Shown in pieces: positions 10,382 through 62,222 of a stretch of DNA of 64,000 bases. Location of the stretch: positions 12,731-76,730 of IMG/VR virus record IMGVR_UViG_3300007734_000753; one strand, given 5' to 3'. Each line of letters begins with the position of its first letter. The stretch's first letter is position 1. Source of the DNA: a virus. Under the pieces are notes generated by a model. It had not been told where the DNA came from. It did not search any database and was given only the letters and a program-made list of their open reading frames with translations. A program made the position numbers and the translations under genes.

Positions 10382-10726
10382 ATGGATAACAAGTTATTAA
10401 AAAAATTAATCATGGAAGAATTAAAAGTATTATTGAAAGAGGAAGTAGGAGGTTCTACCGCAAATCATCCTTGCGTAAAAGGCGATCCTATTCGTCCCGG
10501 CTATAGAAGTGTAAATGATGATACAAGCTCTCTTCAGCCAGCAGAAGCACAATTATCAAAAGCAAGATGCTTTAGAGCCGCAATCAATCTTACAGAACAA
10601 GCAAAAAAAACAACACCAACTGGCGGCGGGGCAGATCGTGGCGCGTATGTGCCAACCCCACAGGGAGAAAAACTTCTCAACATGGCGAAGCAAGCAATTG
10701 AAACTTATTTCCAACTGCAGAAATAA
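10382..10726 (+). CDS. Putative internal head protein
   Basis: ATG at 10382 after GGAG; N-terminal LLKKLIMEELKVLLKEE is the recurring motif. Confidence 0.55.
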   Translation: MDNKLLKKLIMEELKVLLKEEVGGSTANHPCVKGDPIRPGYRSVNDDTSSLQPAEAQLSKARCFRAAINLTEQAKKTTPTGGGADRGAYVPTPQGEKLLNMAKQAIETYFQLQK

Positions 10727-10736
10727 AGGGTAAATC

Positions 10737-11150
10737 ATGACTAACTGGCTAAAAAACAATTGGGCTACTTTGCTTGTGTTTGTTGTTGTATTATCCGCTG
10801 CTTTATGGATCAAAGGTAAATTTGATGAAAGCAATACAGAGGAAGTAAAGCAACAATATATAAAGCAAATGGAAGATCAAAGAAAGTCTTTTGATTCTCA
10901 AATAAAAGAGATAAATAAGATTAATGAAGAAGCTTTATCAAAACAAAAAGAGTTGGCTTTACAACATCAACAAACTTTAGAGAACCTACAACAGCAATTT
11001 GATGAAAAAGTATCTGAACTTGAAGAGTTGAAAAAACTAAAAGTAAAAGAACTTACAAAGCAGCTTACTGATGATCCAGAAGTTGCTGTTCATGAAATGG
11101 CTCATAAGTTTGGTTTTGATGTTGTCGTTGTTCCCGAGGAAGAACCATGA
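10737..11150 (+). CDS. i-spanin-like protein (N-terminal TM + coiled coil)
   Basis: One N-terminal TM helix and a long coiled coil, near the endolysin. Confidence 0.55.
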   Translation: MTNWLKNNWATLLVFVVVLSAALWIKGKFDESNTEEVKQQYIKQMEDQRKSFDSQIKEINKINEEALSKQKELALQHQQTLENLQQQFDEKVSELEELKKLKVKELTKQLTDDPEVAVHEMAHKFGFDVVVVPEEEP

Positions 11151-11578
11151 ATAAAATAATAGCATTTATATTATGTTTCTTGTTTCCTCTATCAGCGTTC
11201 GCAGATAACGGCAAAGTTGCTTCAATTAGAGAAAGCCAGAAAGCTCCATTTACAGGCTTTCTTTTTGATGCCGCAGCATTTGCTAAGATAGAAGTTGATA
11301 AACAAACCATTATTGAGAAATATGAACTTGAGAAAAAGTTATTAATTGAAAAATGCGAGGCAGAGAAAAAGTTTCTAAATGAAACTTGTATCAACGAAAA
11401 AGATGTTTTAGTCAAAACAAACGACGTTGTTCTCAAAGGAAAAGATGAAGAAATAACAAGGCTAAATAAAATTATTGCTGATATGGCTCCACCAAATAGA
11501 GGCTTATGGCTTGGGCTTGGTGCGGCAGCAGGAATAGCAATTAGTCTTACAACAGTCTATTTAGTAAAGAACTTATAG
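11147..11578 (+). CDS. Secreted coiled-coil protein with C-terminal TM (possible spanin partner)
   Basis: Signal peptide AFA|D, C-terminal hydrophobic helix, ATGA overlap with the previous gene. Confidence 0.5.
   Translation: MNKIIAFILCFLFPLSAFADNGKVASIRESQKAPFTGFLFDAAAFAKIEVDKQTIIEKYELEKKLLIEKCEAEKKFLNETCINEKDVLVKTNDVVLKGKDEEITRLNKIIADMAPPNRGLWLGLGAAAGIAISLTTVYLVKNL
11556..11563 (+). promoter_or_regulatory. Late promoter TCTATTTA
   Basis: CTATTTA core about 30 nt upstream of 11591. Confidence 0.5.
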
Positions 11579-11590
11579 GAGTGCTAATGT

Positions 11591-12043
11591 ATGGGAATCA
11601 AAGAAACAATTTCAGACGCAATAAAGAAAGAGGGTCAAGTGCAAGTCCCAGAAGATAAACAAAATCGTTTTAATGTAATCTTCCAAAAAATGATGAGTGT
11701 GAGATGGTATATCACATTTATCACAATGATTACTTTACTTGCTATTCTCTGCGGTATTGTGCTTTCTATTATGGTAAAAGCTGATATGGCTCAAGAGTGG
11801 AAAGAGATTTTATTGCTTATTCTTGGCGCTTTTATTGGTTCTTATAACAGAGTTATTGACTTTTGGTTTAATAATTCACAAAGAGATCAGATAATGCTAC
11901 AGAAGATTGATGAAGAAGACGATCCACCGGGAACTCCAAAATCAGATACACTTACTGTCTCCCCAGCGCAAGACGCAATTGAAGTTAAAATGCCCGAACC
12001 TACACCAGTAAAATCAAAGGAAGAAAAAAATGAAGATAAGTGA
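11591..12043 (+). CDS. Two-TM membrane protein (holin-like)
   Basis: Two TM helices followed by VIDFWF; located in the lysis cluster. Confidence 0.5.
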   Translation: MGIKETISDAIKKEGQVQVPEDKQNRFNVIFQKMMSVRWYITFITMITLLAILCGIVLSIMVKADMAQEWKEILLLILGAFIGSYNRVIDFWFNNSQRDQIMLQKIDEEDDPPGTPKSDTLTVSPAQDAIEVKMPEPTPVKSKEEKNEDK

Positions 12044-12368
12044 ACTCAAACAAATAATAAAAGAAGAACTACAAAAAGCCCTAGCGGAAGAAAAAGAACT
12101 AACAGCAAGAGAAAAGAAACTAGCAGCGATGCGTCCACCAGAGGATAAAATTACTAGAGGTGATGTTATTGCAGCCGCACAAAAAAAGAAAGCTGGTCAA
12201 CTAGATGAAGAAGAAGCACAACATCTTTCTAAAGCTGAAAAGAAAGAAAAAGAAAAAATTGTAAAAGGCATGAAAGACAAGAAGTCAGATTTTGAGAAAA
12301 GATACCCCGGTCGTGGTGAAGAAGTAATGTATGCAACTGCTACAAAAAAAGCTAAAGAAATGAAATAA
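12030..12368 (+). CDS. Putative internal head protein (highly charged)
   Basis: N-terminus MKISELKQIIKEEL; modules DKITRGDVI and KSDFEKRYPGRGEEVMYATATKKAK separated by LAE and LDE. Confidence 0.65.
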   Translation: MKISELKQIIKEELQKALAEEKELTAREKKLAAMRPPEDKITRGDVIAAAQKKKAGQLDEEEAQHLSKAEKKEKEKIVKGMKDKKSDFEKRYPGRGEEVMYATATKKAKEMK

Positions 12369-12370
12369 AA

Positions 12371-12378
12371 ACTATATA
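12371..12378 (+). promoter_or_regulatory. Late promoter variant ACTATATA
   Basis: Intergenic, upstream of small ORF 12405. Confidence 0.5.
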
Positions 12379-12404
12379 ATATACACAAAGGAGGTGATGA
12401 CAAT

Positions 12405-12506: not shown

Positions 12507-12521
12507 TCTAGAAATAGATTG

Positions 12522-12560: not shown

Positions 12561-12568
12561 GTATATAA

Positions 12569-19181: not shown

Positions 19182-19439
19182 ATGAATAACAAGATAAAAA
19201 TTCCTGTTGCTCGTTTGAGACAAATAATCCAAGAAGAAGTTTCTAGATTTTATGAATTAGATGAAGAGGAACAACAAGAAAACGAAAGTCTTCTTGAGGA
19301 AGATGAATTAGAAGAACAAGTTTCTTCAACTGAATTGACCAATAGACAAGTAGGAGCAGAAATCAGCACCGCATTACAAAAACTAAATTCAATGCCAGCT
19401 GATCAAGCAAGAGCAAAATTAAAAGGTCTAGGATTATAA
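19182..19439 (+). CDS. Acidic prohead core/internal protein
   Basis: LRQIIQEEV motif, Glu-rich, several LxE sites; directly upstream of the protease. Confidence 0.6.
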   Translation: MNNKIKIPVARLRQIIQEEVSRFYELDEEEQQENESLLEEDELEEQVSSTELTNRQVGAEISTALQKLNSMPADQARAKLKGLGL

Positions 19440-19440
19440 C

Positions 19441-20031
19441 ATGTCAGAGAAATTTGTACTAACAGAGTTTCTAGAACTATCAAATGATTCTTCACTATTG
19501 ACTGAAGCTGAAAAGCAAAAAGTTAATGAAGGCGAAGAATTTATTCTTGCTGGTGTAATGCAAAGAGCTGACGCCGAAAATGGCAATGGTCGTATCTATC
19601 CTCTTGATATATTAGAAAGAGAAGTTGAAAATTACAAGAAACTTGTAAGAGACAGCCGTGCTCTTGGCGAATTAGACCACCCAGACTCGCCCGTAATTGA
19701 GCTAAAAAATGCCTCCCATATGGTTACATACATTGAGATGCGTGGTAGAGATGTTGTAGGTAAAATTAGAGTTCTTGATACTCCAGCAGGGAAAGTTGCA
19801 AAAGAACTTCTAAAAGGTGGCGTAAAGCTAGGAATTTCTTCTAGAGGTCTTGGTTCAACAAAACAACAAAATGGTAAGACAATGGTTCAAGAAGACTTTC
19901 AATTGGTCTGCTTTGATCTTGTATCTGAACCATCAACAACTGGTGCCTTCATGTTGAAAGAAGGTATGCAACCCAATCTTTTCACAAAAGCAGATAGAAT
20001 CAATAGAATACTAAACAGTATAATAAAGTAA
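19441..20031 (+). CDS. Prohead protease (T4 gp21-like)
   Basis: NGNGRIYP, GELDHP, LGISSRGLGS and FDLVSEPST motifs. Confidence 0.93.
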   Translation: MSEKFVLTEFLELSNDSSLLTEAEKQKVNEGEEFILAGVMQRADAENGNGRIYPLDILEREVENYKKLVRDSRALGELDHPDSPVIELKNASHMVTYIEMRGRDVVGKIRVLDTPAGKVAKELLKGGVKLGISSRGLGSTKQQNGKTMVQEDFQLVCFDLVSEPSTTGAFMLKEGMQPNLFTKADRINRILNSIIK

Positions 20032-20035: not shown

Positions 20036-20488
20036 ATGAAAAAAGAAGAACTCAAAAAAGTACTGAAGCCCGTTATTGAAGAGTGCCTGAAAGAGCTAAT
20101 CTTTGAGAAAGGCGTTCTTTCTTCTATTATAAGCGAAGTGCAAGGCTCTCCTGCACAAGTTGTAACAGAAAACAAACAAGTTGCAAAACAATCATATCAG
20201 GAAAATGAACAAGAATTCATTAGAAAGAAATCAGCTGAAGCTCATAATAAACTTTATGAGCACAAAAAGAAGCTAATGGATGCTGTTGGCAAACAAGCAT
20301 ACGGTGGCGTGAACATTTTTGAGGGAGTTCAGCCAATTGATGAACCACCCGCCCCATCTCAAAGAAGCACCCCAAGCGCAATTGAAGTATTAGATCCCGG
20401 CAATACTGGTGGTATAAATTTAGGAAACATTCCCGGTATGGGCAAGTGGGGAAAAATTTTACAAAAAGTAAATGAATTGAAAGATTAG
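20036..20488 (+). CDS. Hypothetical prohead-associated protein
   Basis: MKKEELKKVLKPVIEECL resembles the recurring helical motif. Confidence 0.65.
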   Translation: MKKEELKKVLKPVIEECLKELIFEKGVLSSIISEVQGSPAQVVTENKQVAKQSYQENEQEFIRKKSAEAHNKLYEHKKKLMDAVGKQAYGGVNIFEGVQPIDEPPAPSQRSTPSAIEVLDPGNTGGINLGNIPGMGKWGKILQKVNELKD

Positions 20489-20511: not shown

Positions 20512-20748
20512 ATGAAGAAAGGTCATGTACAAGTTAGTTTGGCAGAGTGTCATGGCGATACAAATCGTATGATCAAGAAGTTTATGAAGAAAGTCAAAAA
20601 CGAAAAAATCATTGAAGATTATCGCAGAAAAGATTTCTTTGAGAAACCTTCAATTACAAACGCTAGAAAGCGCAAAAGAAGAAAGAAAGTCATGCAAAAA
20701 CTAAATATGCAAAGACTTGCTTTAGATAACAGAACGGAGAAAAAGTAA
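20512..20748 (+). CDS. rpsU: Ribosomal protein bS21 homolog
   Basis: 78 aa; RMIKKFMKKVKNEKIIEDYRRKDFFEKPS..RKRKRR matches the bS21 pattern. Confidence 0.85.
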   Translation: MKKGHVQVSLAECHGDTNRMIKKFMKKVKNEKIIEDYRRKDFFEKPSITNARKRKRRKKVMQKLNMQRLALDNRTEKK

Positions 20749-22467: not shown

Positions 22468-23757
22468 ATGAGTTCATTGATCGAACAAGCTATTCTAGAT
22501 GCCAAAGAATTAAAAGAGGCTGCCATTAAAAATGCGGAGCAACTTATCATTGAGAAATATGCCAATGAAATAAAAAGCAATTTAGAGCAGCTTCTTGAGC
22601 AAGATTTAGGCGCAATGCCAGCGATGCCCGCTGCACCAGCAATGCCGGGAACTGTTGCACCATCTCCACCACCAGTTGATCCAGCCAAAGCAAAAGCAGA
22701 CAAAGATAAGATTCCAAATCAATTGGAATATGCTGCTTTTGATGGTATGACAATTGGTAAAACAAAATATGCAGATCTAAATGAAGAAGTTGAAATTGAT
22801 CTAACTTCTCTAACAGAATATGAATTGAATCCAGAAAAAGGTCCAACCAAAAGAAATCTTCAAGAATCTTTTGACATATCAGAAGAAGCACTACAAGAAA
22901 TGCTTTCTGATTTAGACGCAGGTGGTGCAGATTATATGCACGAAGAAGAAGAGCTAGAAGAAGAAATGACTGGCATGGAAGATACAACCATGCCTATGTA
23001 CGAAGAAGAGGAAGAAATCTCAACAGATGATGACATGGATTTAATGTCGGCTGACGATTCTATGGATGATTTAGGCACCGATGAAGGTGCAGAGAGTGAT
23101 AGTTTATTGGCTTCTTTGTCCTCTGAAGAACCAGAAGAAGAAGAAATGGGAGACATTTCTGCTGAAATAGCCGAAGCTCTAAAGATTGATTACAACGAGA
23201 ACTATATCGCTGGTCGTGATTATGGGCTAGGCGCAAATACAGCCGAAGATACACATACTCTTATGCTTTCTAATCTCTATGATGAAGTTCAAGAGAAAGA
23301 AAAAGAAAATAAAGAACTAAAAGAACAAAATGAATTATTGAAGAAGAAACTTGCAGAAGCCGGTAAACTTATTGCTGAAGCTCACAAACAGCACTCTTCA
23401 ATCAAAGAATCCTTTCACTCGATGAAAGGTAAATTGGCAGAAGTTCAGCTTATGAACGCTAAACTTCTATATTCTAATAAGGTATTGACAGATGCCTCCT
23501 TGAATGAGCGACAGAAAAATAAGATTGTCGAGTCATTGTCAACTGCCGATTCATTAGAAAAAGTAAAAATCGTTTATGAAACCCTTCAGAGCGCAGTGGA
23601 GGACAACACCTCTTGGGCACCTAAATCACTGAGCGAAGCTGTATCAAAACGTTCTTCTTCTCTATTGATCAAAGCCAATAGAAAAGAAGATAAGGATGCA
23701 AATCCTGTAAGTGAAACACTTTCTAGAATGAAGATTCTAGCAGGTATTAATAAATAA
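22468..23757 (+). CDS. Prohead scaffold/core protein (gp22-like)
   Basis: Acidic coiled coil with many LxE sites, NAKLLY and terminal RMKILAGI; directly before the MCP. Confidence 0.8.
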   Translation: MSSLIEQAILDAKELKEAAIKNAEQLIIEKYANEIKSNLEQLLEQDLGAMPAMPAAPAMPGTVAPSPPPVDPAKAKADKDKIPNQLEYAAFDGMTIGKTKYADLNEEVEIDLTSLTEYELNPEKGPTKRNLQESFDISEEALQEMLSDLDAGGADYMHEEEELEEEMTGMEDTTMPMYEEEEEISTDDDMDLMSADDSMDDLGTDEGAESDSLLASLSSEEPEEEEMGDISAEIAEALKIDYNENYIAGRDYGLGANTAEDTHTLMLSNLYDEVQEKEKENKELKEQNELLKKKLAEAGKLIAEAHKQHSSIKESFHSMKGKLAEVQLMNAKLLYSNKVLTDASLNERQKNKIVESLSTADSLEKVKIVYETLQSAVEDNTSWAPKSLSEAVSKRSSSLLIKANRKEDKDANPVSETLSRMKILAGINK

Positions 23758-23782: not shown

Positions 23783-25606
23783 ATGGCTACTATTGTTGAA
23801 AGTTTAACAAGAGATATAGTCGATCGCGATCTCCGTAAAGAAGGTGCCAATCTCATTAAGAAATGGGAAAAGACTGGTCTTCTTGAAGGTTTGAGCGACG
23901 ACAGAGTAAAAAATACAATGTCGGTTCTATTAGAGAACCAAGCAAAAGAACTACTACGTGAAGCTTCTTCAATGTCCGCTGGTGACGTTGAAGGTTTCGC
24001 CGCTGTAGCATTTCCAATTGTACGTCGTGTATTCGGCGGTCTAATTGCAAATGAATTAGTTTCTGTACAACCAATGTCATTACCATCAGGTCTAATCTTC
24101 TTCCTAGATTTTACCTTCTCGGCTGACACTGGCGCTAGAACTCAATCAGGGTTTACTGCTGTAACTGCTTCTTCAGTATACGGTGGCGGCGTTGTTGGTC
24201 AACAAATCACTGGCGGTGTAAGCCTAACTGGTGCTAATGCCGAAACGAGCTTCTATGCTCTAAATAACGGCTACTCAAGCGCCACTGGCTCTGCGGCAAC
24301 AACTGTTGCTGCTGCAACCCCAGATGACCTTTTTGGTAGTGGTGATACAACATCACTACAAAATAGAACACTTGCTGTTATTACAGCAAGCGATGTTTTA
24401 TATTCTGCCATTCTAGGTTATGATGCCGATGAAGCTGCTCTAAATTCCGGAACAATCTATTCTGTTGTAAGCATTCCATTATCAAACCTAACTGGTTCTG
24501 GTGGTAATCCTTTTGACACCAACAACTTGATCGCACTCAATGTTGCCTCTTCTTCTAATGGTTTGATTACAAACCAAGCTGCTGGCACAACTCACAGCGT
24601 TGTAAGAAGATTGACAAGACTCAGTGCAGACAAGACCAAGGTTATTCTAACTGTAAAAAGCGCTGGTACCACACCAGCCAATCCAGTAAATACTTCTGGT
24701 ACTCCTGCATGTACTTTTGCAGTCAAAGATAAGTTCACCGCTGATACAACTAGATTCTCAATTTCTGAGCTTCTAGCTGCTGAAGGCGCTGGTTCTGGCT
24801 CTGTTGGTCCCGGCTTAGGTCAATCCTCTGGTGCAAATGCAACAATCCCCGAGATCGACATTAAGGTGGATTCAATTGCTGTAACTGCTCAAACCAAGAA
24901 ACTAAAAGCAAAATGGACTCCTGAGCTAGCTCAAGATCTAAATGCTTATCACAACTTGGATGCAGAAGTAGAATTGACTGGTATTCTCTCAGAGCAAATT
25001 GCTCTAGAAATCGACCAAGAGATTCTAAACGATCTAGTTAAGGGTGCCACCGCTGGTACACTTTACTGGTCACGTCGCCCCGGTAAGTTCGTAAACCGTG
25101 AAACTGGCGCATCAATTGCTTCAGCAGTTGCTCCTCCAGACTTCACTGGTAACGTGTCCGAATGGTACGAAACACTTGTAGAAACTCTAAACGACGTTTC
25201 TGCTCGTATTCACCGTAAGACACTACGCGGTGGTGCAAACTTCATGGTTTGCTCACCAGAAGTTGCTAACATCCTAGAGTTCACCTCTGGTTTCCGCGCT
25301 TCTGTATCTGCTGAAGAACTCAAAGGTAATTCAGTGGGTGCCGTAAAGGTTGGCTCAATGAGCAAGAAGTGGGACGTATATGTTGATCCATATTTCCCAC
25401 GTAACGTAGTACTAATCGGTCGTAGAGGCAAGGCGTTCTTAGAGAGCGGCTATGTCTACGCTCCTTATGTACCACTACAAGTTACCCCCACCATCTTTGG
25501 TGTCGAGGACTTCGTACCACGTAAAGGCGTAATGACTCGTTATGCCAAGAAGATGGTGCGCCCCGATATGTACGGTTTAGTAATCTGCGAAGATCTATTA
25601 GGCTAG
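23783..25606 (+). CDS. Major capsid protein (T4 gp23-like)
   Basis: LLENQ, VQPMSLPSGLIFFL, KLKAKWTPELAQDL, YAPYVPL and KGVMTRYA motifs. Confidence 0.96.
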   Translation: MATIVESLTRDIVDRDLRKEGANLIKKWEKTGLLEGLSDDRVKNTMSVLLENQAKELLREASSMSAGDVEGFAAVAFPIVRRVFGGLIANELVSVQPMSLPSGLIFFLDFTFSADTGARTQSGFTAVTASSVYGGGVVGQQITGGVSLTGANAETSFYALNNGYSSATGSAATTVAAATPDDLFGSGDTTSLQNRTLAVITASDVLYSAILGYDADEAALNSGTIYSVVSIPLSNLTGSGGNPFDTNNLIALNVASSSNGLITNQAAGTTHSVVRRLTRLSADKTKVILTVKSAGTTPANPVNTSGTPACTFAVKDKFTADTTRFSISELLAAEGAGSGSVGPGLGQSSGANATIPEIDIKVDSIAVTAQTKKLKAKWTPELAQDLNAYHNLDAEVELTGILSEQIALEIDQEILNDLVKGATAGTLYWSRRPGKFVNRETGASIASAVAPPDFTGNVSEWYETLVETLNDVSARIHRKTLRGGANFMVCSPEVANILEFTSGFRASVSAEELKGNSVGAVKVGSMSKKWDVYVDPYFPRNVVLIGRRGKAFLESGYVYAPYVPLQVTPTIFGVEDFVPRKGVMTRYAKKMVRPDMYGLVICEDLLG

Positions 25607-43101: not shown

Positions 43102-43109
43102 ACTATTTA
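43102..43109 (+). promoter_or_regulatory. Late promoter ACTATTTA
   Basis: Between the terminator and the GAGGAG RBS. Confidence 0.7.
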
Positions 43110-43133: not shown

Positions 43134-44150
43134 ATGAATATTCGCAAGTTAATTGAAGAAGAGTTGAATAAAGTTTTGAAAGAAGCAGAAGTCCCTCCCT
43201 CGGTCACTCCAACAGAAAAAGGTTTTTCTGCTCAAAATCCTTTTGATTCCGTTCAAGAACTTCAAGCTTATTATGCAAAACCTGAAAACAAAAAAGAACA
43301 ACAAGAAATAGCCTTTTATAAAACCGATAAAGGTGGGATAGTCAAAGCGTATGTTGTTGATGGTAACATTATAGAAACATCCTCGGCACAACTAAAATAC
43401 CCAAGCCCATTAGATTATGCCGATCAACAAACGCTAGCTAAACAAAGTCTTACAAGAAGATTCGGAGCAAAATGTGAATTTGCTTCTTTTGTTCAGAATC
43501 TAATAAGAGAAAAAATTAAATTTGACGATCCAATTCTCGTTAAAAAATTATCTGATGGCAAAATGGGTTTTGTAACAGCGACAGCTATAAATTATATGAT
43601 AAATTATGCGACCAAAGCCGGTATACAAACAAATATAAAGCCGATCGCTTATAATAAACAGGCATATATGAACGCCTGCAAAACAGATAAAGCTACTATG
43701 CAAGAATTTCAGAAGTTATTTTATGCTGTACCAGCAGAAGAAATAAAAAAAGTGATACAACAAGCTGCGGCGCAACCAGCGGCGCAACAAGCTGATACCA
43801 ATGATGTAACCCTTGAATTGTCTATGATTAGACAAATTATAGCAAAAAGATTAAGTTTATTACTAAAAAATCCTTCTGACATTAAAAGAGTTTCTGATAC
43901 AATATATACACAGTATTTACCAAATGAGATATATAAGAGCCGTATGAAACCTGAAGGCATTACAACAGATGAAATGTATCGAATTGTAGGTGTTGTACTT
44001 GATCGATTTGACGCTGATTTTCCCGGCGCACTAGAAGATAAACCCAGCGCAACAGGCGCAGGAGCACCAGTGGGTAGTTTCGGGGGTGTGCAAGAATCCA
44101 AATCCCTCCGAAGTATGATCCTCAAAGAGATCCTTGCTGCTCTAAAATAA
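43134..44150 (+). CDS. Putative internal head protein
   Basis: N-terminal IRKLIEEELNKVLKE|A and C-terminal LRSMILKEIL; has its own late promoter. Confidence 0.6.
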   Translation: MNIRKLIEEELNKVLKEAEVPPSVTPTEKGFSAQNPFDSVQELQAYYAKPENKKEQQEIAFYKTDKGGIVKAYVVDGNIIETSSAQLKYPSPLDYADQQTLAKQSLTRRFGAKCEFASFVQNLIREKIKFDDPILVKKLSDGKMGFVTATAINYMINYATKAGIQTNIKPIAYNKQAYMNACKTDKATMQEFQKLFYAVPAEEIKKVIQQAAAQPAAQQADTNDVTLELSMIRQIIAKRLSLLLKNPSDIKRVSDTIYTQYLPNEIYKSRMKPEGITTDEMYRIVGVVLDRFDADFPGALEDKPSATGAGAPVGSFGGVQESKSLRSMILKEILAALK

Positions 44151-45619: not shown

Positions 45620-46120
45620 GTGAAGAACAGAAAGAGAAGCAGTGTCTGCAAAATATGCAAAACCCTGACTTTTTATGGGAGATTCCTAAAAATGGTTCAG
45701 AGCAACATCTTGTACAGCAAGTGCAAGAAGTCGGAAGATCCGGAGAGGATACAACAAGTAATAAGGATCTTGAGAAGTGAATTGAATATAAGTGAAAGCG
45801 GTGTTGGTCTTTCGGCAAATCAAATTGGTATCAACGAAAGTATTTGTATCGTAAATGCCATTAGAGAAATAGTGTTTGTAAATCCAGAGATTGTTGAGGC
45901 ATCTGAAGAAATGTTTACATTTCATGAAGGATGCCTTTCTTTTCCAAATACTTTTGTAAAGACTATAAGACATAAAAGAATTGTGGTAAAATCAGACAAC
46001 AATGAACTTATGGAATTTGTTTATCATGATTTTGATGATAAAAACAACTTGGAGCTTGTCTGTGTTCAACACGAAATAGATCACCTAAACGGTATAACAA
46101 TGTTTGATAGGAAACAATGA
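45620..46120 (+). CDS. def: Peptide deformylase (start may be 45692)
   Basis: GVGLSANQIG, EGCLS and QHEIDHLNG motifs. Confidence 0.92.
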   Translation: MKNRKRSSVCKICKTLTFYGRFLKMVQSNILYSKCKKSEDPERIQQVIRILRSELNISESGVGLSANQIGINESICIVNAIREIVFVNPEIVEASEEMFTFHEGCLSFPNTFVKTIRHKRIVVKSDNNELMEFVYHDFDDKNNLELVCVQHEIDHLNGITMFDRKQ

Positions 46121-54345: not shown

Positions 54346-54353
54346 ACTATTTA
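54346..54353 (+). promoter_or_regulatory. Late promoter ACTATTTA
   Basis: Upstream of the GGAGG RBS of the ferritin-like gene. Confidence 0.75.
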
Positions 54354-54371: not shown

Positions 54372-54734
54372 ATGGAAGAATTAGTTACAAGTTTGCTACA
54401 AATCCAACAGCAAACAAGAATTTTACATTGGCAAACAAAATCATATGCTCGTCATAAAGCCTATGGAAAAATATACGATGATTTAGGCGATCTAATAGAT
54501 GAGTTCATGGAAGTTCACATGGGCAAATATGGTCGTTTTGAGTTAGAAGATAAAAGAATTGCTGTAGAAAATCTAGATGCTATGACTGTTTCTGATTTTC
54601 TTGATCAATCAATTGAATTTCTAATTGGTTTGACCGATCAACTTGATGCAAGAAGAGATACAGACCTTCTCAATATTAGAGATGAAATGTTAGCTAAAAT
54701 GAATAGATTGAAATATCTACTAACTCTGAAATAG
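54372..54734 (+). CDS. Ferritin/Dps-like four-helix protein (DUF5856-like)
   Basis: LHWQTKSYARHKA..Y..L..LID.F.E and LLNIRDEML...NRLKYLLTL. Confidence 0.75.
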   Translation: MEELVTSLLQIQQQTRILHWQTKSYARHKAYGKIYDDLGDLIDEFMEVHMGKYGRFELEDKRIAVENLDAMTVSDFLDQSIEFLIGLTDQLDARRDTDLLNIRDEMLAKMNRLKYLLTLK

Positions 54735-54744
54735 GCTTTTTACC

Positions 54745-57069
54745 ATGAAAATTCAGATTCGCAAAACACTTTCAGAAGATATGAAAGCTCCTTATTATAA
54801 GAGAGTAAAAGGTATCCACGAAAAGAATAAAAAAATTCTGATTGGTTTTGGTGTCGGAGCCGATGAAAACAGAGGACCGTTCAAGACCGACCGTTCGATG
54901 GGCAAGAAGGGTAAATCTGCACCTCCCGGCGCTGCTGGTGGTGGTTCTTTAGAAGAAGTGCTGGTAGAAGGCGGTGTTGCTGGGCATATGAATCACTTAT
55001 ATGATAATCCAGACATTACATTTAGCCAAATAAAAGATATATTCAATAAAGCTTCTGCTGGCGAACTGGAAGGTACAGAAAAAACCGATGGGCAAAATTT
55101 GCAAATCTCTTTTTCAGTACCAGAACAAAGAGCTAAAGCCGCTAGAAATAAAGGCAACATCAAGGCTGGTGGTCTAACTTCCGACGAACTAAAAACCAAA
55201 TTTGCTGGTCGTGGTCCACTGGAAGAAACATTTGCTGATGCTCTTCAATCTTTTGAGGAACTTGTAAAAACTTTACCCCAAGAACAACAAGTAAGTATTT
55301 TTGGTCCTAATACTGAAATATATTATAATGCCGAAGTTCAAGATCCTAGAACAGCTAATGTAATTTATTATGATTCGCCAAACTTGGTTATTCACCAAGC
55401 TGGACATGCTAAATACAATAGAGAAACGGGAGACAAAGAAGAAGTTGACGTTTCACAAAATGCAGCAATGCTCAACGATCTGTTGCAAAAACAACAGAGT
55501 TCACAACAAAGTAAATTCAAGGTTCAATCTAACGCTATAAGAAAATTACAAGCTATATCAGATAAAAGTATCGTAAAGAACTACATCACAAGACTAGACC
55601 AAGAAATAAGCAAGTATGGCATCTCGGATAATCAAAAACTAAAAGATTATGAAAAAGCCAGACTTCGACAAATCATAAAGCAAGAATTCAACATTGAGCT
55701 AAATGATGAACAATTTGAGATGATTTCAACCAAGATGTTTGGCGAAACATCAGAAAACATAAATCAAGTTGTAAAGAGATTTCCACCTGAAATTGCTGCA
55801 ACAGTAAAAACTATTATTGCCTCCAAAGATTTATTAGGTAAAGCCGTAAGACCAATTGAGGTAATTATTCATGATTTTGCTGTGGAAATTCTAAAGGGTC
55901 TTGAGAGCGCATTTGTTCTAGATAATAAGAAAGAAGTAAAGAGACTAAAAGACGAAGTTGCAGATGCTATAAATCAAATACAACAATCTGGGCAAGAAGA
56001 AGCTATAACTATTCTAAACAAACAATTGGAAAAACTCAAGACGGCTGACAATGTTTATACAGCAGCTGAAGGATTTGTCTTCCAGTATGATGATGTTGTG
56101 TATAAATTTACTGGTAATTTTGCTCCAATAAATCAAATCTTGGGATTGTTCAAGTATGGCAGAGGCTCTGTGCCAGCTATCAAAAAACAAATCAGTGAAT
56201 CAACTGAAGCACAAAATGTAATTGTTGTATTCCCCGGTTCCTTCAAGCCTCCGCACAAAGGACATATAGGACTTGTTGACGAAGTATCACACATGTCTGG
56301 TATCAGTAAAGTTGTTGTCCTTATATCTGATCCTGTGCAAGAAACCAGTATAAGAACAAAAGACTTTGGCGCTAAAGAAGTCAAACTAATTTTCGATCTT
56401 TACAGCGAAGTGTATGACTTTGGCTGTAGTGTTGATTTTGATGTTGCTAATGCGCCTTCCCCATTGACTGCAGCTTATAAGTATTTGGAAACAGAAAACT
56501 TTCAGCCGGGAACCAAAGTTTTATTTGCAACATCAAAAGCAGATGCTGGAAGGTATCCGCAAATCAAATTAGATAAATCTGCTTCCAAAAATCCTTCTGG
56601 ACCAACCGCTGGCTCTATAGAATTACCAGAGATGATCGATCCAGATACAGGAAAGAAATTTAGTGCAACAAACATGCGTGAAATTCTTGCAGATCCAAAT
56701 GCAGATAAACAACTGCTGAAGAGATATATGCCAAATGAACTTCCCGATGAAGATAAGGAAATGGTGATTGATATGCTTACAAAAGGCTCTAAAAAGCAAG
56801 AGATGGAAACTATGATAACAGAAATCTTAGCAGAAATGTTAGGACTTTCTGAGAAGAAAGATATGATTTGTGATGGTACCATGTGTAATGAAGTTCACGA
56901 TGGTATGAGTCATGAAGAATATGAATCATATTCAATGCAAGAAGAAGAAGGCAAAGATGATCGCTGCACTCGCATTGCAAAAAGAAAATATGATGCTTGG
57001 CCAAGCGCTTATGCTTCTGGCGCAGTTGTAAGATGCCGCAGAGGCGAAATTTGGAAAGGCGAAAAGTAA
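54745..57069 (+). CDS. Multidomain protein: ligase-like nucleotidyltransferase, HxGH cytidylyltransferase-like domain, basic modules
   Basis: TEKTDG, NAEV, AEGFVF and YKFTG; FPGSFKPPHKGH and SATNMR; C-terminal WPSAYASGAVVRCR. Confidence 0.7.
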   Translation: MKIQIRKTLSEDMKAPYYKRVKGIHEKNKKILIGFGVGADENRGPFKTDRSMGKKGKSAPPGAAGGGSLEEVLVEGGVAGHMNHLYDNPDITFSQIKDIFNKASAGELEGTEKTDGQNLQISFSVPEQRAKAARNKGNIKAGGLTSDELKTKFAGRGPLEETFADALQSFEELVKTLPQEQQVSIFGPNTEIYYNAEVQDPRTANVIYYDSPNLVIHQAGHAKYNRETGDKEEVDVSQNAAMLNDLLQKQQSSQQSKFKVQSNAIRKLQAISDKSIVKNYITRLDQEISKYGISDNQKLKDYEKARLRQIIKQEFNIELNDEQFEMISTKMFGETSENINQVVKRFPPEIAATVKTIIASKDLLGKAVRPIEVIIHDFAVEILKGLESAFVLDNKKEVKRLKDEVADAINQIQQSGQEEAITILNKQLEKLKTADNVYTAAEGFVFQYDDVVYKFTGNFAPINQILGLFKYGRGSVPAIKKQISESTEAQNVIVVFPGSFKPPHKGHIGLVDEVSHMSGISKVVVLISDPVQETSIRTKDFGAKEVKLIFDLYSEVYDFGCSVDFDVANAPSPLTAAYKYLETENFQPGTKVLFATSKADAGRYPQIKLDKSASKNPSGPTAGSIELPEMIDPDTGKKFSATNMREILADPNADKQLLKRYMPNELPDEDKEMVIDMLTKGSKKQEMETMITEILAEMLGLSEKKDMICDGTMCNEVHDGMSHEEYESYSMQEEEGKDDRCTRIAKRKYDAWPSAYASGAVVRCRRGEIWKGEK

Positions 57070-57070
57070 A

Positions 57071-57919
57071 ATGAAAATTCCTCTGAACCAACTTCAGCAG
57101 ATTATCAAAGAAGAGCTTACAAAAGCCATTGAAGAAGAGTGGTCTGAAAAATATAAAAGATCAATTGACTGCAAAAATCCAAAAGGCTTTTCTCAAAGAG
57201 CACATTGCCAAGGCAGAAAGAAAAATGAAGCTAGTGATCCAAAAGTAGGAACAGGTAAAAAACCAGAGGGTTCTGGTCGCCGCTTATACACAGATGAAAA
57301 TCCAAAAGATACTGTGAGTGTTAAATTTTCAACTGTTCAAGATATAAAAGACACTCTCTCAAAAGAATCTTTCAAGTCAAAACCACATGCTCGTCAATCA
57401 CAGATAATCAATCTAATTCACCAGAGAGTTCGCGCTGCCTATGAAAACGCAAAAGATCCAGAAGTGAAAGCTAGACTAAAGAAAGCATATGAATATGCAG
57501 AGCAAAGAAAAGAAGCCTCAAAAGAAAAAACTGCCAGTTTGCAAAAGGAAGAACAAGACGTTCAACTAAATGAAAAATGCTGGGAAGGTTATACACAGAA
57601 AGGCATGAAAACAATGTTTGGCAAGAAATACCCAAACTGCGTAAAAAAGACAAATGAAGAAGTTGAATTAGATGAGCGCAAACTTGGCAAGCCTTCTAGT
57701 GAAACTTCTTTGAGAGATTGGTTCAAGCGCAAAGGTGCCCCCGGTAAAGGCGGCGGTTGGGTTGATTGTAATACTTGTCGTGATGGTAAATGCAAGCCAT
57801 GTGGCAGACAAGAAGGCGAAAAGAGAAGCAAGTATCCAAGATGCCGTCCAACTCCTGCCCAATGTAAGGGCTACAAGAGAAGAGGCGATAATCTACAAAA
57901 GGAAGCGGAAGAACAATGA
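57071..57919 (+). CDS. Modular basic/Cys-containing internal head polyprotein
   Basis: LQQIIKEEL, then modules IDCKNPKGFSQRAHC, GSGRRLYTDENP, CWEGY..KKYPNCV and LRDWF..WVDC..KPCGR..YPRCRP. Confidence 0.65.
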   Translation: MKIPLNQLQQIIKEELTKAIEEEWSEKYKRSIDCKNPKGFSQRAHCQGRKKNEASDPKVGTGKKPEGSGRRLYTDENPKDTVSVKFSTVQDIKDTLSKESFKSKPHARQSQIINLIHQRVRAAYENAKDPEVKARLKKAYEYAEQRKEASKEKTASLQKEEQDVQLNEKCWEGYTQKGMKTMFGKKYPNCVKKTNEEVELDERKLGKPSSETSLRDWFKRKGAPGKGGGWVDCNTCRDGKCKPCGRQEGEKRSKYPRCRPTPAQCKGYKRRGDNLQKEAEEQ

Positions 57920-58452
57920 AAATAAGACTGCTTCTGGAGTCAAAGAAGAAATACGTTCAAGTTCCTCTGCCTGTAAAAAAGACGGAACTTGAACCTGTTA
58001 TGTCTGCTGACACAATTGATTATCATTATGGCTCTCTTTATAAAGGCTACGTTGATAAAGCCAATAAAGGTATTGGTGGTGAATTCCAAAAAGCAGGAGC
58101 TTTTCTTCATAACATTTGGTTCTCACAATTTACAAAGCCTTCCTCAAAAAAACCAGACGGTTTATTCCTTGAGCTTGTAAATCGCAAATACGGTTCTTAT
58201 GCCTCTTTCCAAAAAGAAATGAAAGAAGTTGCCATGAAGATTCAAGGCTCTGGTTGGGTCTATATGGATAAAAACGGCAACATAAAAACTATTGTAAATC
58301 ACGAAATCAAACCAGACATTATCCTATTGATTGATTGGTGGGAACACGCTTGGGCTTTGGATTATCAAGCAGATAAAGAAGAATACCTAGACAACATTTA
58401 CAAAGTTATTGACTGGAATGTTATAAACGCTCGTTTATCGACGGAGCAATAA
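57916..58452 (+). CDS. sod: Fe/Mn superoxide dismutase
   Basis: LEPVMS..TIDYHY, FLHNIWF, QGSGW and DWWEHAW motifs. Confidence 0.88.
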   Translation: MKIRLLLESKKKYVQVPLPVKKTELEPVMSADTIDYHYGSLYKGYVDKANKGIGGEFQKAGAFLHNIWFSQFTKPSSKKPDGLFLELVNRKYGSYASFQKEMKEVAMKIQGSGWVYMDKNGNIKTIVNHEIKPDIILLIDWWEHAWALDYQADKEEYLDNIYKVIDWNVINARLSTEQ

Positions 58453-59084
58453 TGGCTTATCTCAATCACAATATACCAACAATAACTTGCTACATTAGAA
58501 ATGAGTATTTATTCAATCACGAAAAAGGACATGGCGAGTATTCGCTATGTGATGTTCACTCTGTTGCTTCAATGGAAAAGAGAGTTCCTTTATTTGAGGC
58601 GTTCCTTGAAAATGGTGTGAACTGGACAAGACGACCTATCCACGCTTTCTGCTGGAAGAAAGAAGCTCCTATTAGAAAACTAGAAGAACATATTTATTGG
58701 GACTGTTTCAGCCCATATGTCGATGTTCAAGTTAGAAACAGATTGGCTGGATTGAAAGCACAGCTTATTGATTATAAAGGTAATAAACACCTTGGTCAAT
58801 ATATGTTTACTCTTGATTGGTCTTGGGAAAACAAATCTGGCAATATGGACACAAATTTTAGTGAAACTCCGGAACATAAATGCGGGCACCTATTCAAGAT
58901 GGATGAAGGTAACTTCTTTATTTATCCTAACAACAGAATCATTTGGTACGATGATGCTTGGACAAAGGATAGAATCAAAGGTAATCCCGGTTATAGAATT
59001 GATATGACAGTTTATTCTGTTGAAAATAAAAGATTATATGAAACAGATGACCAATACTTTACGGAGTTTTCTAAAGCAAAGTAA
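58452..59084 (+). CDS. Hypothetical protein
   Basis: TAATG-coupled to SOD; WDCFS, EHKCGH and YPNNR. Confidence 0.7.
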   Translation: MAYLNHNIPTITCYIRNEYLFNHEKGHGEYSLCDVHSVASMEKRVPLFEAFLENGVNWTRRPIHAFCWKKEAPIRKLEEHIYWDCFSPYVDVQVRNRLAGLKAQLIDYKGNKHLGQYMFTLDWSWENKSGNMDTNFSETPEHKCGHLFKMDEGNFFIYPNNRIIWYDDAWTKDRIKGNPGYRIDMTVYSVENKRLYETDDQYFTEFSKAK

Positions 59085-59091
59085 CTATTTA
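59084..59091 (+). promoter_or_regulatory. Late promoter ACTATTTA
   Basis: Overlaps the previous stop codon; upstream of 59108. Confidence 0.7.
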
Positions 59092-59107
59092 TAGGCTGGA
59101 GCACATA

Positions 59108-60670
59108 ATGAATTTTAGACTCATAAGACAGCTTGCTAGAAAGATTCTTCTAGAAGAACGCCCAGCCATATCTCTTGGACCTTGGAGTGAAGAAGATAGC
59201 GGATTTTGTAGATATAATGCAAAAATTAATGAATATGCCGCAGACTCTCCAGAAAATCTTGCCGAAGTTCTAATCTTCTGTGTTGCCTCTCAACTTGTTG
59301 ATTGGCCAAACATTTATACAAGATTTCCATATCTCATAAATTGGATATATGCCCATGATGGTATGTATCCAAAAGATGCTAAAATGGTTGGTAAAAAAAT
59401 GGAAGGTGGATTTCCAAAAACTTTCGAGGCAATCGCTCTTGGCGAAAAAGCTAAATCCATAAATTTTCTTTGGAAAGATAGAGATAACGTATTCAGAACA
59501 CTCTCTCCGATTATAAGAAGATATAAGAACATGAAAGAGGGAGAAGCAAAAGAGCAAGCAGCTTTTGAGCTTTATCTGAAAATACTTGATGTTAGACACT
59601 TGAAACTTGCAAAAGCTGGTTTTGCTGTACAATTGTTGATAGGTAGATATGGTTGCATAGACTCAATAAATACTAAGTTATTAAAAGTGCCAATGCCAGC
59701 AACTCTTGTTACAACTGACAAAGAAGGCAAACCTTCCTTCAGAGATTATACGAAAAAATATGTAAATGATACTGCATTTGGAGTTTCCGCAGAGGAATCC
59801 AAAGAAAGACTAGCCAGATTATATGCTGATTATTTATTGGAAATTGGTGATTTAGCAAAAGATAACGAATCAAAAGTTTTATGGGACAAATGGTGTGACA
59901 TTGTTGCTGCTAAAATAAACTTTGCTGGTAAAGAATTTGATGTTACTGATCCACAAGGTATATATAAAGATGCGACTGTCAAAAGTGATTATGCTGTAAA
60001 CATCAAACCAACTACGCCACCAGCAAGTTATCAATATGGTCCCGGTAAAAAAGAAATTGCTGGTCCAGAAGTGAGCAGACAACATGCCGGTCTATATAGA
60101 GGTATGAGAGACATAACGGAGAACAACATGAACAATAAACTAAAATCTATAATTCTTGAACAATTACTAGAAATGCTAAACGAAAAGACATTTGCCGGAA
60201 AGAAAGAGTTAGATAACGATGGCGATGGTGTTCCAAAATGGGCTGACAAGGACGATGCTAATCCAAAAGTTGGATCAAAGTCAAGTAAGAAAAAAGAACT
60301 CGATGAAATGTCCTCAATGAGCGCTGGTTCTGTTGAAGGTTATGCAGCCCCACTAGATGAAGAAGATGATACAATTGTTGAGTATTTGACCGAAGAAGAA
60401 GCCAAGAAAAAACAGCCAAGACTCGGAAAGGTGACTCGTAATCCGGCAGGATCAAATAAGAAATTTCACGTTTATGTGAAGTGCAACGGAAGAGTAAAGA
60501 AAATTTCTTTCGGTGATCCCGGTTTATCAATCAAGAGAGACTCCGCTGCTCGTAGAAAGAATTTCAGAGCAAGACACAAATGCGATAAACCAGAGGGTAA
60601 AAATCGCTGCACAGCCCGCTATTGGTCTTGTTATCAATGGAGAGCAGGCAAGAAAGTAGAAGGCGAGTAA
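59108..60670 (+). CDS. Internal polyprotein: HhH-glycosylase-like domain and basic C-terminal module
   Basis: LKLAKAGFAVQL..G..GCIDS.N; LKSIILEQLLEMLNE; KKFHVYV..VKKISFGDP..RRKNFRARHKC..ARYWSC. Confidence 0.55.
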   Translation: MNFRLIRQLARKILLEERPAISLGPWSEEDSGFCRYNAKINEYAADSPENLAEVLIFCVASQLVDWPNIYTRFPYLINWIYAHDGMYPKDAKMVGKKMEGGFPKTFEAIALGEKAKSINFLWKDRDNVFRTLSPIIRRYKNMKEGEAKEQAAFELYLKILDVRHLKLAKAGFAVQLLIGRYGCIDSINTKLLKVPMPATLVTTDKEGKPSFRDYTKKYVNDTAFGVSAEESKERLARLYADYLLEIGDLAKDNESKVLWDKWCDIVAAKINFAGKEFDVTDPQGIYKDATVKSDYAVNIKPTTPPASYQYGPGKKEIAGPEVSRQHAGLYRGMRDITENNMNNKLKSIILEQLLEMLNEKTFAGKKELDNDGDGVPKWADKDDANPKVGSKSSKKKELDEMSSMSAGSVEGYAAPLDEEDDTIVEYLTEEEAKKKQPRLGKVTRNPAGSNKKFHVYVKCNGRVKKISFGDPGLSIKRDSAARRKNFRARHKCDKPEGKNRCTARYWSCYQWRAGKKVEGE

Positions 60671-60675
60671 AACAC

Positions 60676-60704
60676 TTGACTGGCATCTAAAGAGCTGTTA
60701 GACT
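60676..60704 (+). promoter_or_regulatory. sigma70 promoter giving a probable leaderless mRNA
   Basis: TTGACT, N17, TAGACT with extended TG; ATG 6 nt after the -10; no SD. Confidence 0.65.
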
Positions 60705-60710
60705 GGTGCC

Positions 60711-61475
60711 ATGAAAACTCTTCTACGCTATCCCGGTGGTAAAGCCAAGGCTGTAAAAGCCCTATTACCATATATCCCTAAAGATACTAAAAAAGTTATA
60801 TCACCTTTCTTTGGCGGTGGTTCGCTTGAATTTGCTTTATCAGAGCAAGGCATTGAGGTTGAAGGCTTTGATATATTCAAGCCTGTTGTCAATTTCTGGA
60901 AGGTTGTTCGATATAATCCAAATGAATTGGCTGACAAGATTCAGGAGTATTTGCCAGTTACCAAGGAAAAGTTCCTTTATTTGCAACAGAATCTGCGTGA
61001 AAAAAACGATAAATTATTCAAGGTTGACATTGAGGCTGCAGCAATTTTCTTTATTCTAAACCGCTGTTCCTTCTCTGGAACAACACTATCTGGCGGATTT
61101 AGCAAAGAGGCATCCACTGGTAGGTTGACTCAAACATCAATTGATAAGATTCGTAGCTTTGATAGTAAAATTGATGTATTTGCCATACCATTTGAGGAAA
61201 CTATTCCGAAGGCAGATGGTCTATTATTTTGTGATCCTCCCTACTATCTTGGAAATAAATCAAATCTTTATGGTGATAATGGAGATACACATAAAAACTT
61301 CAATCATGAGCTTTTGGCAGAACTATTGAAAAAGAAAGATAACTGGATTCTGTGTTATAATAACGATCCATATATTCGTAACTTATATAAGGACTACGAG
61401 TGGCGTTATCCAAATTGGAAATATGGCATGTCATCTGAAAAAAATTCTAAAGAGATTCTTATTGTGTGCCCATGA
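60711..61475 (+). CDS. N6-adenine DNA methyltransferase (D12/Dam family)
   Basis: LRYPGGK, SPFFGGGS, LNRCSFSG and CDPPY motifs. Confidence 0.9.
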   Translation: MKTLLRYPGGKAKAVKALLPYIPKDTKKVISPFFGGGSLEFALSEQGIEVEGFDIFKPVVNFWKVVRYNPNELADKIQEYLPVTKEKFLYLQQNLREKNDKLFKVDIEAAAIFFILNRCSFSGTTLSGGFSKEASTGRLTQTSIDKIRSFDSKIDVFAIPFEETIPKADGLLFCDPPYYLGNKSNLYGDNGDTHKNFNHELLAELLKKKDNWILCYNNDPYIRNLYKDYEWRYPNWKYGMSSEKNSKEILIVCP

Positions 61476-61483
61476 ACTATTTA
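61476..61483 (+). promoter_or_regulatory. Late promoter ACTATTTA
   Basis: Intergenic, before 61503. Confidence 0.7.
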
Positions 61484-61502
61484 TTCGACATAGGAGTGTC
61501 AC

Positions 61503-62222
61503 ATGAAAGAGATTTTTAGAAGCTGGAATAAATACTTGTTAACTGAGTCATCTTTATCAAGAGTGCTTGAGCATATTGAGGCTCATGATTGCGCTGTAAT
61601 AACTGCTTTTAGAAGCGATCCGGATGATACTTCTAAGTGTGCCGATGGCACTGATTCAGATTCTGAAAACGTTTCTGATGTTGGCTCCGAAGAAGAAGTA
61701 GAAGCCGTAGAGATGGAAAAGCCAAAAGTTGGTAAGAAAGAAACTTTAAGCAAAAACAAAGTTAGAAACCGCGACCTCAAAGCCACTCTTTTAGATAGAG
61801 GATATGGTGTCACCGCAGTTGTCGGATCTTATGTAGAGAATTTCATGGAAGAAAACTCTGTGGAAGTGAAAGAGGACAGTCTATTTGTTGTAAATCTAAA
61901 GGAAGATGGAGACTTCATTAATACCATCGAGTCTTTAGGTCGCAAGTACTGCCAAGATTCAGTGCTTATAATTCCTCAAGGCGGTAAAGACGCTTATCTG
62001 CTTGGTACAAACAACGCAGATTTCCCCGGCTTAGGCAACAAAGAAGTTGTTGGTAGTTTTCAGGCTGGGCGCGAAGATCAATTCATGACTCGCGTTGGTG
62101 ATCGCCCATTCACCATGAAAGAAAGAAAAGAATTCAAGCTTGAGACTCTAGCTAATCACACAAGAAACTCTCGCTGGGCAATCAAGACAATTGCAAAAAG
62201 AGTAAATAAAACTTTACGATAA
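61503..62222 (+). CDS. Hypothetical protein with putative capsid-targeting leader
   Basis: MKEIFRSWNKYLLTE|SSLSR; ITAFR, GSYVE, EDSLFV and KYCQDSVL. Confidence 0.65.
   Translation: MKEIFRSWNKYLLTESSLSRVLEHIEAHDCAVITAFRSDPDDTSKCADGTDSDSENVSDVGSEEEVEAVEMEKPKVGKKETLSKNKVRNRDLKATLLDRGYGVTAVVGSYVENFMEENSVEVKEDSLFVVNLKEDGDFINTIESLGRKYCQDSVLIIPQGGKDAYLLGTNNADFPGLGNKEVVGSFQAGREDQFMTRVGDRPFTMKERKEFKLETLANHTRNSRWAIKTIAKRVNKTLR

Follow-up and report, generated by a model that had tools for sequence, protein, structure and literature searches.

About ten otherwise unrelated proteins encoded in a 64-kb stretch of viral DNA, including a superoxide dismutase (SOD) and a protein resembling S-adenosylmethionine (SAM) lyases, carry short N-terminal leaders, which are probably part of a system for the loading and processing of capsid cargo of the type known from phage T4, where a capsid targeting sequence (CTS) is combined with the protease gp21, in this case with leader sequences that are specific to the lineage. 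The stretch, here termed the window, was taken from the 76.7-kb contig IMGVR_UViG_3300007734_000753, which is about 42% complete as estimated by CheckV. As judged from the sequences of its portal, its major capsid protein (MCP) and TerL, which are all T4-like, the phage is a distant T4-like myophage. Among cultured phages, its closest relative is Flavobacterium phage immuto, with 46% identity between the TerL proteins. All genes in the window are oriented on the + strand and are denoted below by the window position of their first nucleotide.

In the proposed mechanism, short amphipathic N-terminal leaders would bring the attached proteins into the scaffolding core during prohead assembly, where a protease of the gp21 type would cut after the motif [LIV]-x-E and thereby remove the leader, with cuts at equivalent motifs also separating the modules of proteins that are organized as 'beads-on-a-string'. 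The mature, mostly basic proteins would then be retained in the head alongside the DNA and may pass into the cell upon infection. For this phage, we infer targeting, cleavage, retention and ejection from sequence. While the principle is known from T4, the unrelated leader sequences, the presence of several leader classes in a single phage, the enzymes among the cargo and the polyprotein format are new, and in the collection of papers that was searched, CTS-like leaders were not described for cyanophages or for other T4-like phages from aquatic habitats.

The leaders can be assigned to distinct classes. Type A, described by L[KRQ]x[IL]IxEE[LV], is found on a gp67-like core protein and on four basic proteins (10382, 12030, 43134 and 57071), type B, xxW[NK]KYLLTE/S (with the slash indicating the predicted site of cleavage), on the SAM lyase-like protein, and short hydrophobic leaders precede the SOD (MKIRLLLE/S) and a ligase/NMNAT-like enzyme (..VLVE/GG). 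An earlier note on this DNA, made from the sequence alone, had proposed a portable tag that would be shared by enzymes. This proposal has to be modified, as the LKxIIxEE tag is confined to small basic proteins without enzymatic domains and to the core protein and is absent from the SOD and the ligase/NMNAT-like, Ogg-like and SAM lyase-like proteins, where other short leaders were found instead.

A recurring peptide at the N-terminus of unrelated proteins

The earlier note had listed a recurring amphipathic peptide in unrelated open reading frames (ORFs), and every one of the listed peptides is present in the respective ORF. Its recurrence above chance was recovered for a smaller set. When all six reading frames of the complete contig were searched with the expression [LI][KRQ].[LIVM]I.EE[LVI], five matches were identified (at window nucleotides 10397, 12045, 19215, 43140 and 57092, all on the + strand), compared to a mean of 0.01 in residue shuffles and an analytic expectation of 0.008, a ratio that is flattering since the expression was fitted after the matches had been seen. 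All five copies begin 2–11 residues after the ATG that opens a + strand ORF, and since the first 25 residues of the proteins hold 8.4% of all residues, this N-terminal placement corresponds to a P of about 4e-6. The codons for L, I and E vary between the copies, and it is thus the peptide and not the RNA that is under selection. Sequences resembling Shine-Dalgarno motifs are found upstream of most of the inspected ATGs. A sixth, looser N-terminal copy, LKPVIEECL in 20036, is kept in orthologues, and the peptide, in five strict and one variant version, thus constitutes a short N-terminal leader common to otherwise unrelated proteins. In contrast, the match of LRSMILKEI, METMITEIL, LKSIILEQL and IRQLARKILLEE is limited to a loose pattern, which is found 30 times in the proteome, and these peptides are therefore not above chance on their own.

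Besides the core protein described below, the strict version is found on four proteins. The first two are small and basic, one of 114 residues (10382..10726), which starts with MDNKLLKKLIMEELKVLLKEEV, has an isoelectric point (pI) of 9.3 after the tag and did not match any Pfam or PHROG family, the other of 112 residues (12030..12368), which starts with MKISELKQIIKEEL and matches phrog_12788 in its C-terminal part. The third, a protein of 338 residues (43134..44150), contains the leader MNIRKLIEEELNKVLKE/A followed by a variable linker, a conserved domain and a conserved C-terminal helix ESKSLRSMILKEILAALK. In an alignment of its four homologues the leader and both termini are conserved, with a Pro/Ala-rich insertion of 0–46 residues following the leader. 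As there are just these four homologues, all with the same leader, the family provides no evidence of leader swapping. With a tag at the N-terminus and a helix resembling a tag, ESKSLRxMILKEILAALK, at the C-terminus, the family is reminiscent of T4 Alt, for which processing at both termini is known (PMC9026906).

The fourth protein (57071..57919, 282 residues) shows a 'beads-on-a-string' organization, with a type A leader preceding four small basic modules (pI 9.6–10.1), three of which contain Cys pairs, and it has more than 6000 homologues in metagenomes. The mature parts of type A proteins are generally basic (pI 9.0–9.7), and the internal proteins (IPs) of T4 and their relatives are likewise termed basic proteins (PMC9026906). 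The modules of 57071 recur behind other leaders and in different order, and throughout the family a Glu is nearly always found one or two residues ahead of each module, with junctions such as INE/S, LLE/KS, ILE/K and KNE/A. The module M2 is preceded by INE/S, LLE/K or LSE/A, or it is leaderless and starts with MS-DPK. Compared with P0019, the modules are 83–89% identical and their order differs, with M1 being first in the window and following M2/M3 in P0019, and these mini-domains have thus been shuffled between genes. The modules also make up a protein of 517–618 residues that is encoded between terS and terL in T4-like cyanophages, and which in phage Bellamy (gp122) reads MKSFKQFQE/SWSNKYKKSIDC and thus starts with a T4-like leader.

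The N-terminal preference of the peptide extends beyond the window. In a set of 80 other loci that carry the modules, the type A pattern reaches at N-termini 12-fold the density seen inside proteins, and six tagged genes were counted in a single locus of 20 kb from this set. A sharper type A subtype, MNLQE-x-I[RK][RK][IV]L[RK]EE, was observed at the start of six neighbouring small genes in one locus (L038:7863-16600) and of three in another (L033:13161-14600), which originates from a 268-kb phage contig.

Relation to the prohead core and its protease

The type A peptide is linked to the head by the gp67-like prohead core protein (19182..19439, 85 residues), where the leader MNNKIKIPVARLRQIIQEEV is followed by an acidic tail. 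This arrangement of a helix and an acidic tail is also found in T4 gp67 (..IDLIKEEK.. and acidic tail). The gene is located directly upstream of the protease gene, as in T4, where gene 67 is upstream of gene 21 and genes 67/68 lie on that side. The protease itself (19441..20031, 196 residues) is a member of the gp21 family within a T4-like head module, as defined by its matches to PHROG 207 (head maturation protease, E 1.5e-52) and the Pfam family Peptidase_S77 (PF03420, E 9.4e-24), and its own N-terminus contains VLTE and LLTE/A sites. All five long module-bearing contigs that were tested encode an S77 protease. Directly 3' of the protease gene follows a conserved protein of 150 residues (20036..20488), which starts with MKKEELKKVLKPVIEECLKE and contains the looser type A variant. 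Orthologues of this protein with the motif KPI[IV]KEC are encoded behind the protease gene in 12 of 14 related loci and were also found in L114 and L115.

The tag of the core protein is kept in the related loci L002-L004, with variants in L009/G001 (LRRLIKEE) and L014 (IRRLVREE). In G001, a 176-kb relative, the type A motif is restricted to the gp67-like core protein, which suggests that the tags on cargo copy the N-terminus of the latter. Homologues of the modules of 57071 were not detected in this relative, and together these results indicate that the spread of the tag is lineage-specific. In the same relative (L022-L030), the ORFs 27942, 36517, 38495 and 44226, encoding several large proteins, share a start of the form M-x-IK-[LI]-I-[IL]-E-S-K. 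The first three are partly paralogous and the start resembles the SOD leader of the window, MKIRLLLESKK.

The specificity of the protease is predicted from the MCP, a gp23-like protein of 607 residues (23783..25606; PHROG 138, E 1.2e-70). In a BLASTP alignment with T4 gp23, the sequence KELLRE/ASS was placed on GSFLTE/AEIGG, which supports the claim of the earlier note that the MCP propeptide, here predicted to comprise residues 1–60, ends at LLRE/A. The site points to a cleavage after L/I-x-E, the known specificity of T4 gp21 (PMC9026906). Between the protease and MCP genes, in synteny with T4 gene 22, resides the gene of a scaffold-like protein of 429 residues (22468..23757), which has no family match in PHROG or Pfam searches and whose N-terminus, MSSLIEQAILDAKELKE/A, ends in L-K-E/A.

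The head module further contains the genes of TerL (13675) and portal (15257), with three unknown genes between the latter and 19182. It also harbours, as the second gene after the protease gene, a gene related to ribosomal protein S21 (phrog_21469, 20512-20748), whose position is kept in the relatives L002-L013. Phage PA5oct contains an S21 gene as well, in that case close to its SOD gene.

Leaders end at predicted protease sites in front of conserved domains

In five unrelated families, comprising the SOD, the SAM lyase-like protein, the ligase/NMNAT-like protein and two basic mini-modules, the motif [LIV]-x-E directly precedes the conserved domain, and these alignments thus predict that the leaders end at a protease site that adjoins the mature domain. 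In two families, the modules of 57071 and 54745, leaderless orthologues start at P1', the residue following the predicted cut, or one residue before it. Within the window, the motif [LIVMF]xE[SAG] is found in the first 25 residues of 12 of 78 proteins compared to 7.4% of interior windows (P = 0.012), and the 12 include 17347, located directly after the portal gene, the protease, the scaffold-like protein, the MCP, 43134, the SOD and 61503.

One such junction is found in the SAM lyase-like protein (61503..62222, 239 residues), which carries the leader MKEIFRSWNKYLLTE/SSLSR. Its assignment is based on a match to the Pfam family S-AdoMet_lyase (PF23780, E 1.1e-12; 48.5 bits at a cut-off of 28) and on the top match of its model in Foldseek, the SAM lyase of phage T3 (8bb1_E, E 2.5e-4, TM 0.68 on the target), and sequence and model thus both point to a T3-type SAM lyase fold. 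In 125 representatives of this family at 50% identity, the residue at P1, preceding the conserved start SSLSR..HDCAxITAFR, is a Glu in 114 (91%) and the residue at P3 is L, I, V, F or M in 116 (93%). The leaders themselves are hypervariable, with lengths ranging from 3 to 73 residues, and unrelated leaders of different length replace one another on the same domain. When they were sorted with regular expressions, type B (ENWKxFLxE) was assigned to 16 and type A to 8, while 7 are T4-CTS-like (as in MKTYKDFLNE/SSLSR and MKRYKDFIKE/SGLSK), 2 are of an IRLTE type, 19 are very short and 73 remain unclassed. In the AlphaFold2 (AF2) model of 61503, residues 2–11 of the leader form a helix, which is followed by a loop across LLTE/S and by the domain from residue 17 onward. 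Directly upstream of this gene resides a Dam-like DNA methyltransferase (PHROG 56), which places a SAM user beside a SAM destroyer in the region 60711-62222.

The Fe/Mn SOD (57916..58452, 178 residues; leader MKIRLLLE/SKKK) was identified by its matches to the Pfam families Sod_Fe_C (PF02777, E 4.5e-21) and Sod_Fe_N (PF00081, E 6.7e-8), and the residues H37, H65, D140 and H144, which we read as metal ligands, are invariant in the alignment. Its 120 best homologues are short SODs, most of which contain about 176–203 residues. The conserved DYH motif served as an anchor in 114 of them, and these contain an N-terminal extension before the canonical start with the consensus hydrophobic-hydrophobic-E/[SA]-K-K. 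The AF2 model, with an overall pLDDT of 91.5, shows values below 50 for residues 1–9 (MKIRLLLES) and above 90 for the rest, and the leader is in this prediction unstructured and located outside the fold. The homologue of PA5oct, the nearest from a cultured phage, starts with MNDSIKKYISIAE/AASS, and its GenBank entry carries a note on tandem mass spectrometry with electrospray ionization (ESI-MS/MS), which refers to proteins found by mass spectrometry (MS) of virion particles (PMC7318152). The earlier claim that short leaders end in L-x-E is supported for the SOD by this family consensus, and it did not hold for the sequence MKIQIRKTLSE assigned to 54745.

This last protein (54745..57069, 774 residues) consists of an extension of about 75 residues ending in VLVE/GGVAG, a ligase-like part, a cytidylyltransferase-like domain with an HxGH motif (Pfam CTP_transf_like at 495-532) and a basic WPSAYASG tail module. 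When compared with 42 viral loci, homology starts from residues 69–81 in 40 cases and from residues 325 or 360 in two loci at contig ends. Of 20 distinct N-termini preceding the conserved start GG[VA]AGHxxHLYD, 14 carry leaders of 5–15 residues ending in [LF]-x-E/GG, and the remaining six are leaderless, with a start M-G.. that coincides with the first residue of this motif. MKIQIRKTLSE was thus rejected as leader, as the relatives support the junction ..SLEEVLVE/GGVAG at residue 75/76 instead.

Similar junctions are found in 59108..60670, a protein of 520 residues that starts with the leader MNFRLIRQLARKILLEE. It further contains an N-terminal part that may resemble Ogg/HhH glycosylases, a junction helix in its interior, the site YLTE/E and a basic DUF5754-like tail module, which matches phrog_7595. 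The assignment of the N-terminal part is a lead from Atlas (Ogg-HhH, 0.90), for which there is no support in Pfam and no close relative among the IMG/VR loci returned. In 56 distinct junctions preceding the DUF5754-like module, P3 is I, L or V in 54, P1 is Glu in 54 and P1' is A or S in 55, and small carriers of this module start with MK[TS][FL]K[QE][FVY].

The region 54372-60670 has the flavour of a response to oxidative damage. It contains, behind a single copy of the element ACTATTTA described below, an untagged Dps-like DUF5856 protein (54372), the ligase/NMNAT-like protein, the basic module protein and the Fe/Mn SOD, followed by a protein matching the 'ferredoxin' family PHROG 3704 (58452) and the possible Ogg-like glycosylase (59108).

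Alternative explanations

Several observations weigh against a T4-type loading system. The enrichment of short L-x-E leaders in the window is modest, amounting to just about 2-fold, and where an [LIV]-x-E motif adjoins a conserved domain, it could belong to the fold instead of being a cut site. Type A copies are also found in the interior of proteins and at one C-terminus, and the peptide is thus not purely an N-terminal signal. In Flavobacterium phage immuto, no N-terminal type A tag was detected in 41 kb around the head genes. The basic modules are also present in the podophages HTVC033P and CRP-901/902. Finally, the proteins detected by MS in PA5oct include non-structural enzymes (PMC7318152), and contamination is thus possible.

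Some of these features would be expected if type A were an uncleaved structural helix at the N-terminus, involved in self-association or in docking to the scaffold or core without marking proteins for delivery, and if [LIV]-x-E were intrinsic to the fold. The conserved home of the motif in the core protein beside the protease is in line with this explanation, as are its internal occurrences and its presence at the C-terminus of 43134, and in the 61503 family the conservation of P3 and P1 persists with leaders of just 3–6 residues. We nevertheless consider a structural helix unlikely. The leaderless orthologues of two families, which start at P1' or at the residue preceding it, speak against it, as do the disorder of the SOD leader in the AF2 model and the exchange of unrelated leaders of varied length on one domain.

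In a second alternative, the leaders would not be capsid signals but recognition sequences for a modifying enzyme such as a radical-SAM maturase, as in ribosomally synthesized and post-translationally modified peptides, which would suit the Cys-rich character of several modules. This explanation is very improbable, as the contig, itself only about 42% complete, contains no match to Radical_SAM (PF04055), the leaders are unrelated to a Ser-rich FVSNSSS tag of phage proteins that is linked to a radical-SAM enzyme, and they end in a protease motif and flank a protease gene. Finally, although the low GC content (33–40% across 4-kb windows), the many ORFs starting with MK(I/K) and the abundance of loose matches would favour an origin by chance from N-termini rich in K, I, E and L in an AT-rich genome, or a nucleotide-level feature of translation initiation, the residue shuffles, the N-terminal position and the variation in synonymous codons make such an origin highly improbable, and it is also at odds with the conservation of the tag in orthologues and its N-terminal density in the 80 other loci.

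A promoter-like element upstream of tagged and structural genes

The sequence ACTATTTA is found in 18 copies on the + strand and in none on the - strand, with 3.6 being expected over both strands. The copies range from 12537 to 62400 and are mostly located about 10–50 nucleotides 5' of a start, several of them after GC-rich inverted repeats, and four reside inside ORFs at a distance of 138–397 nucleotides from the next listed start. Six + strand copies precede structural genes (17320, 22430, 25681, 28282, 33580 and 51089), the second of which is located upstream of the gene of the scaffold-like protein. The earlier note had placed most of the tagged genes downstream of this element. A direct location was found for three of ten, as the copies at 43102, 59084 and 61476 on the + strand immediately precede 43134, 59108 and 61503. 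Another three (54745, 57071 and 57916) follow the copy at 54346..54353 (+ strand), which is located ahead of a run of genes comprising 54372 (DUF5856), 54745, 57071, 57916 (SOD) and 58452, whereas no copy was found near the remaining four (10382, 12030, 19182 and 20036). The element is probably a late promoter element of the lineage and it is unlike TATAAATA of T4. Among the replication genes, a peptide deformylase (PHROG 2890, 45620-46120) is also located 3' of a ACTATTTA site.

Relation to known systems

The CTS of T4 has the sequence MKTYQEFIAE. This tag of 10 residues underlies the T4 vectors for protein delivery and the injected anti-restriction protein IPI*. None of the leaders in the window resembles MKTYQEFIAE, and homologous domains in other phages carry leaders of the MKTYKDFLNE or MKTFKQF type. 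The proven CTS corresponds to the first 10 residues of IPIII, and it was already suggested to be a general device of T4-like phages (PMC9026906). As in T4, with the CTS of IPI, IPII and IPIII, the propeptide of Alt and the protease gp21 (PMC9026906, PMC3012670), short leaders ending in L/I-x-E are found here on unrelated, mostly basic proteins. The likeness extends to the gp21-family protease, the gp67/gp68 core genes beside its gene and the homologous site in the MCP propeptide, and cargo of an anti-restriction type is plausible, with the SAM lyase-like protein in the window and IPI* in T4. In contrast to T4, the phage studied here would use several leader classes and its cargo would comprise a SOD, a ligase/NMNAT-like protein, a possible glycosylase and multi-module polyproteins.

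Leaders closer to the T4 CTS are found in cyanophages. The genome of S-SRM01 (MW015081.1) contains six ORF-start-like MK[TS]F[KQ][QE]F sites (47292, 82315, 83142, 126582, 138614 and 157606), with none found on its reverse strand or in the control, and Bellamy and S-SCSM1 contain one such start each, located beside the module polyprotein between terS and terL. In the latter phage this polyprotein (S-SCSM1_29) is annotated as 'virion protein'. The virion proteins of S-SCSM1 were identified by MS, and NMNAT-like proteins recur in cyanophage virions (PMC9602691). In S-SCSM1 (PMC9602691) and PA5oct (PMC7318152), homologous classes of cargo were thus detected by MS in purified virions, while leaders and their processing were not described there. 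With the cyanophage NMNATs, 54745 shares homology at superfamily level only.

In the giant phages SPN3US, phiKZ and 201phi2-1, the cleavage logo reportedly differs from that found here. Similar to the mechanism proposed in this study, these phages contain many propeptided head-internal proteins, which are cut by a prohead protease after a short motif of the x-x-E type and delivered into the cell (PMC5694885, PMC7411985, PMC10052503). They belong to a different lineage, for which a comparable leader, short, portable and common to several proteins, has not been reported. In case of the Dar system of phage P1 (DarA/Hdf/DarB and others), the loading hierarchy is different and we know of no leader logic based on a gp21-type L-x-E site. 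Its anti-defence proteins are loaded into the capsid as a protection against restriction, and their packing depends on head morphogenesis (PMC9024508, PMC12810830).

Implications

In a wider and more tentative interpretation, which we regard as possible without considering it the likelier outcome, aquatic T4-like phages would have a general and modular 'capsid cargo code', in which interchangeable leader classes, each adapted to the scaffolding core of its lineage, and [LIV]-x-E joints serve to load a changing arsenal of proteins into the head and to cut them out. Such an arsenal would include SOD, SAM lyase, Ogg-like glycosylase and ligase/NMNAT enzymes in addition to thousands of small basic Cys mini-proteins, and it would be supplied by shuffled polyproteins as well as by single genes. 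If this is the case, the injected or virion-delivered proteins of uncultured phages would become predictable from sequence alone, and the more than 6,000 unannotated metagenomic proteins composed of small basic modules would gain a working hypothesis as head-internal proteins. In the phage studied here, a packaged kit against oxidative damage, consisting of SOD and the Ogg-like protein, would serve the protection or repair of the genome, either inside the virion or during entry, and packaged SOD and SAM lyase would be testable factors of counter-defence or damage control in the first minute of infection.

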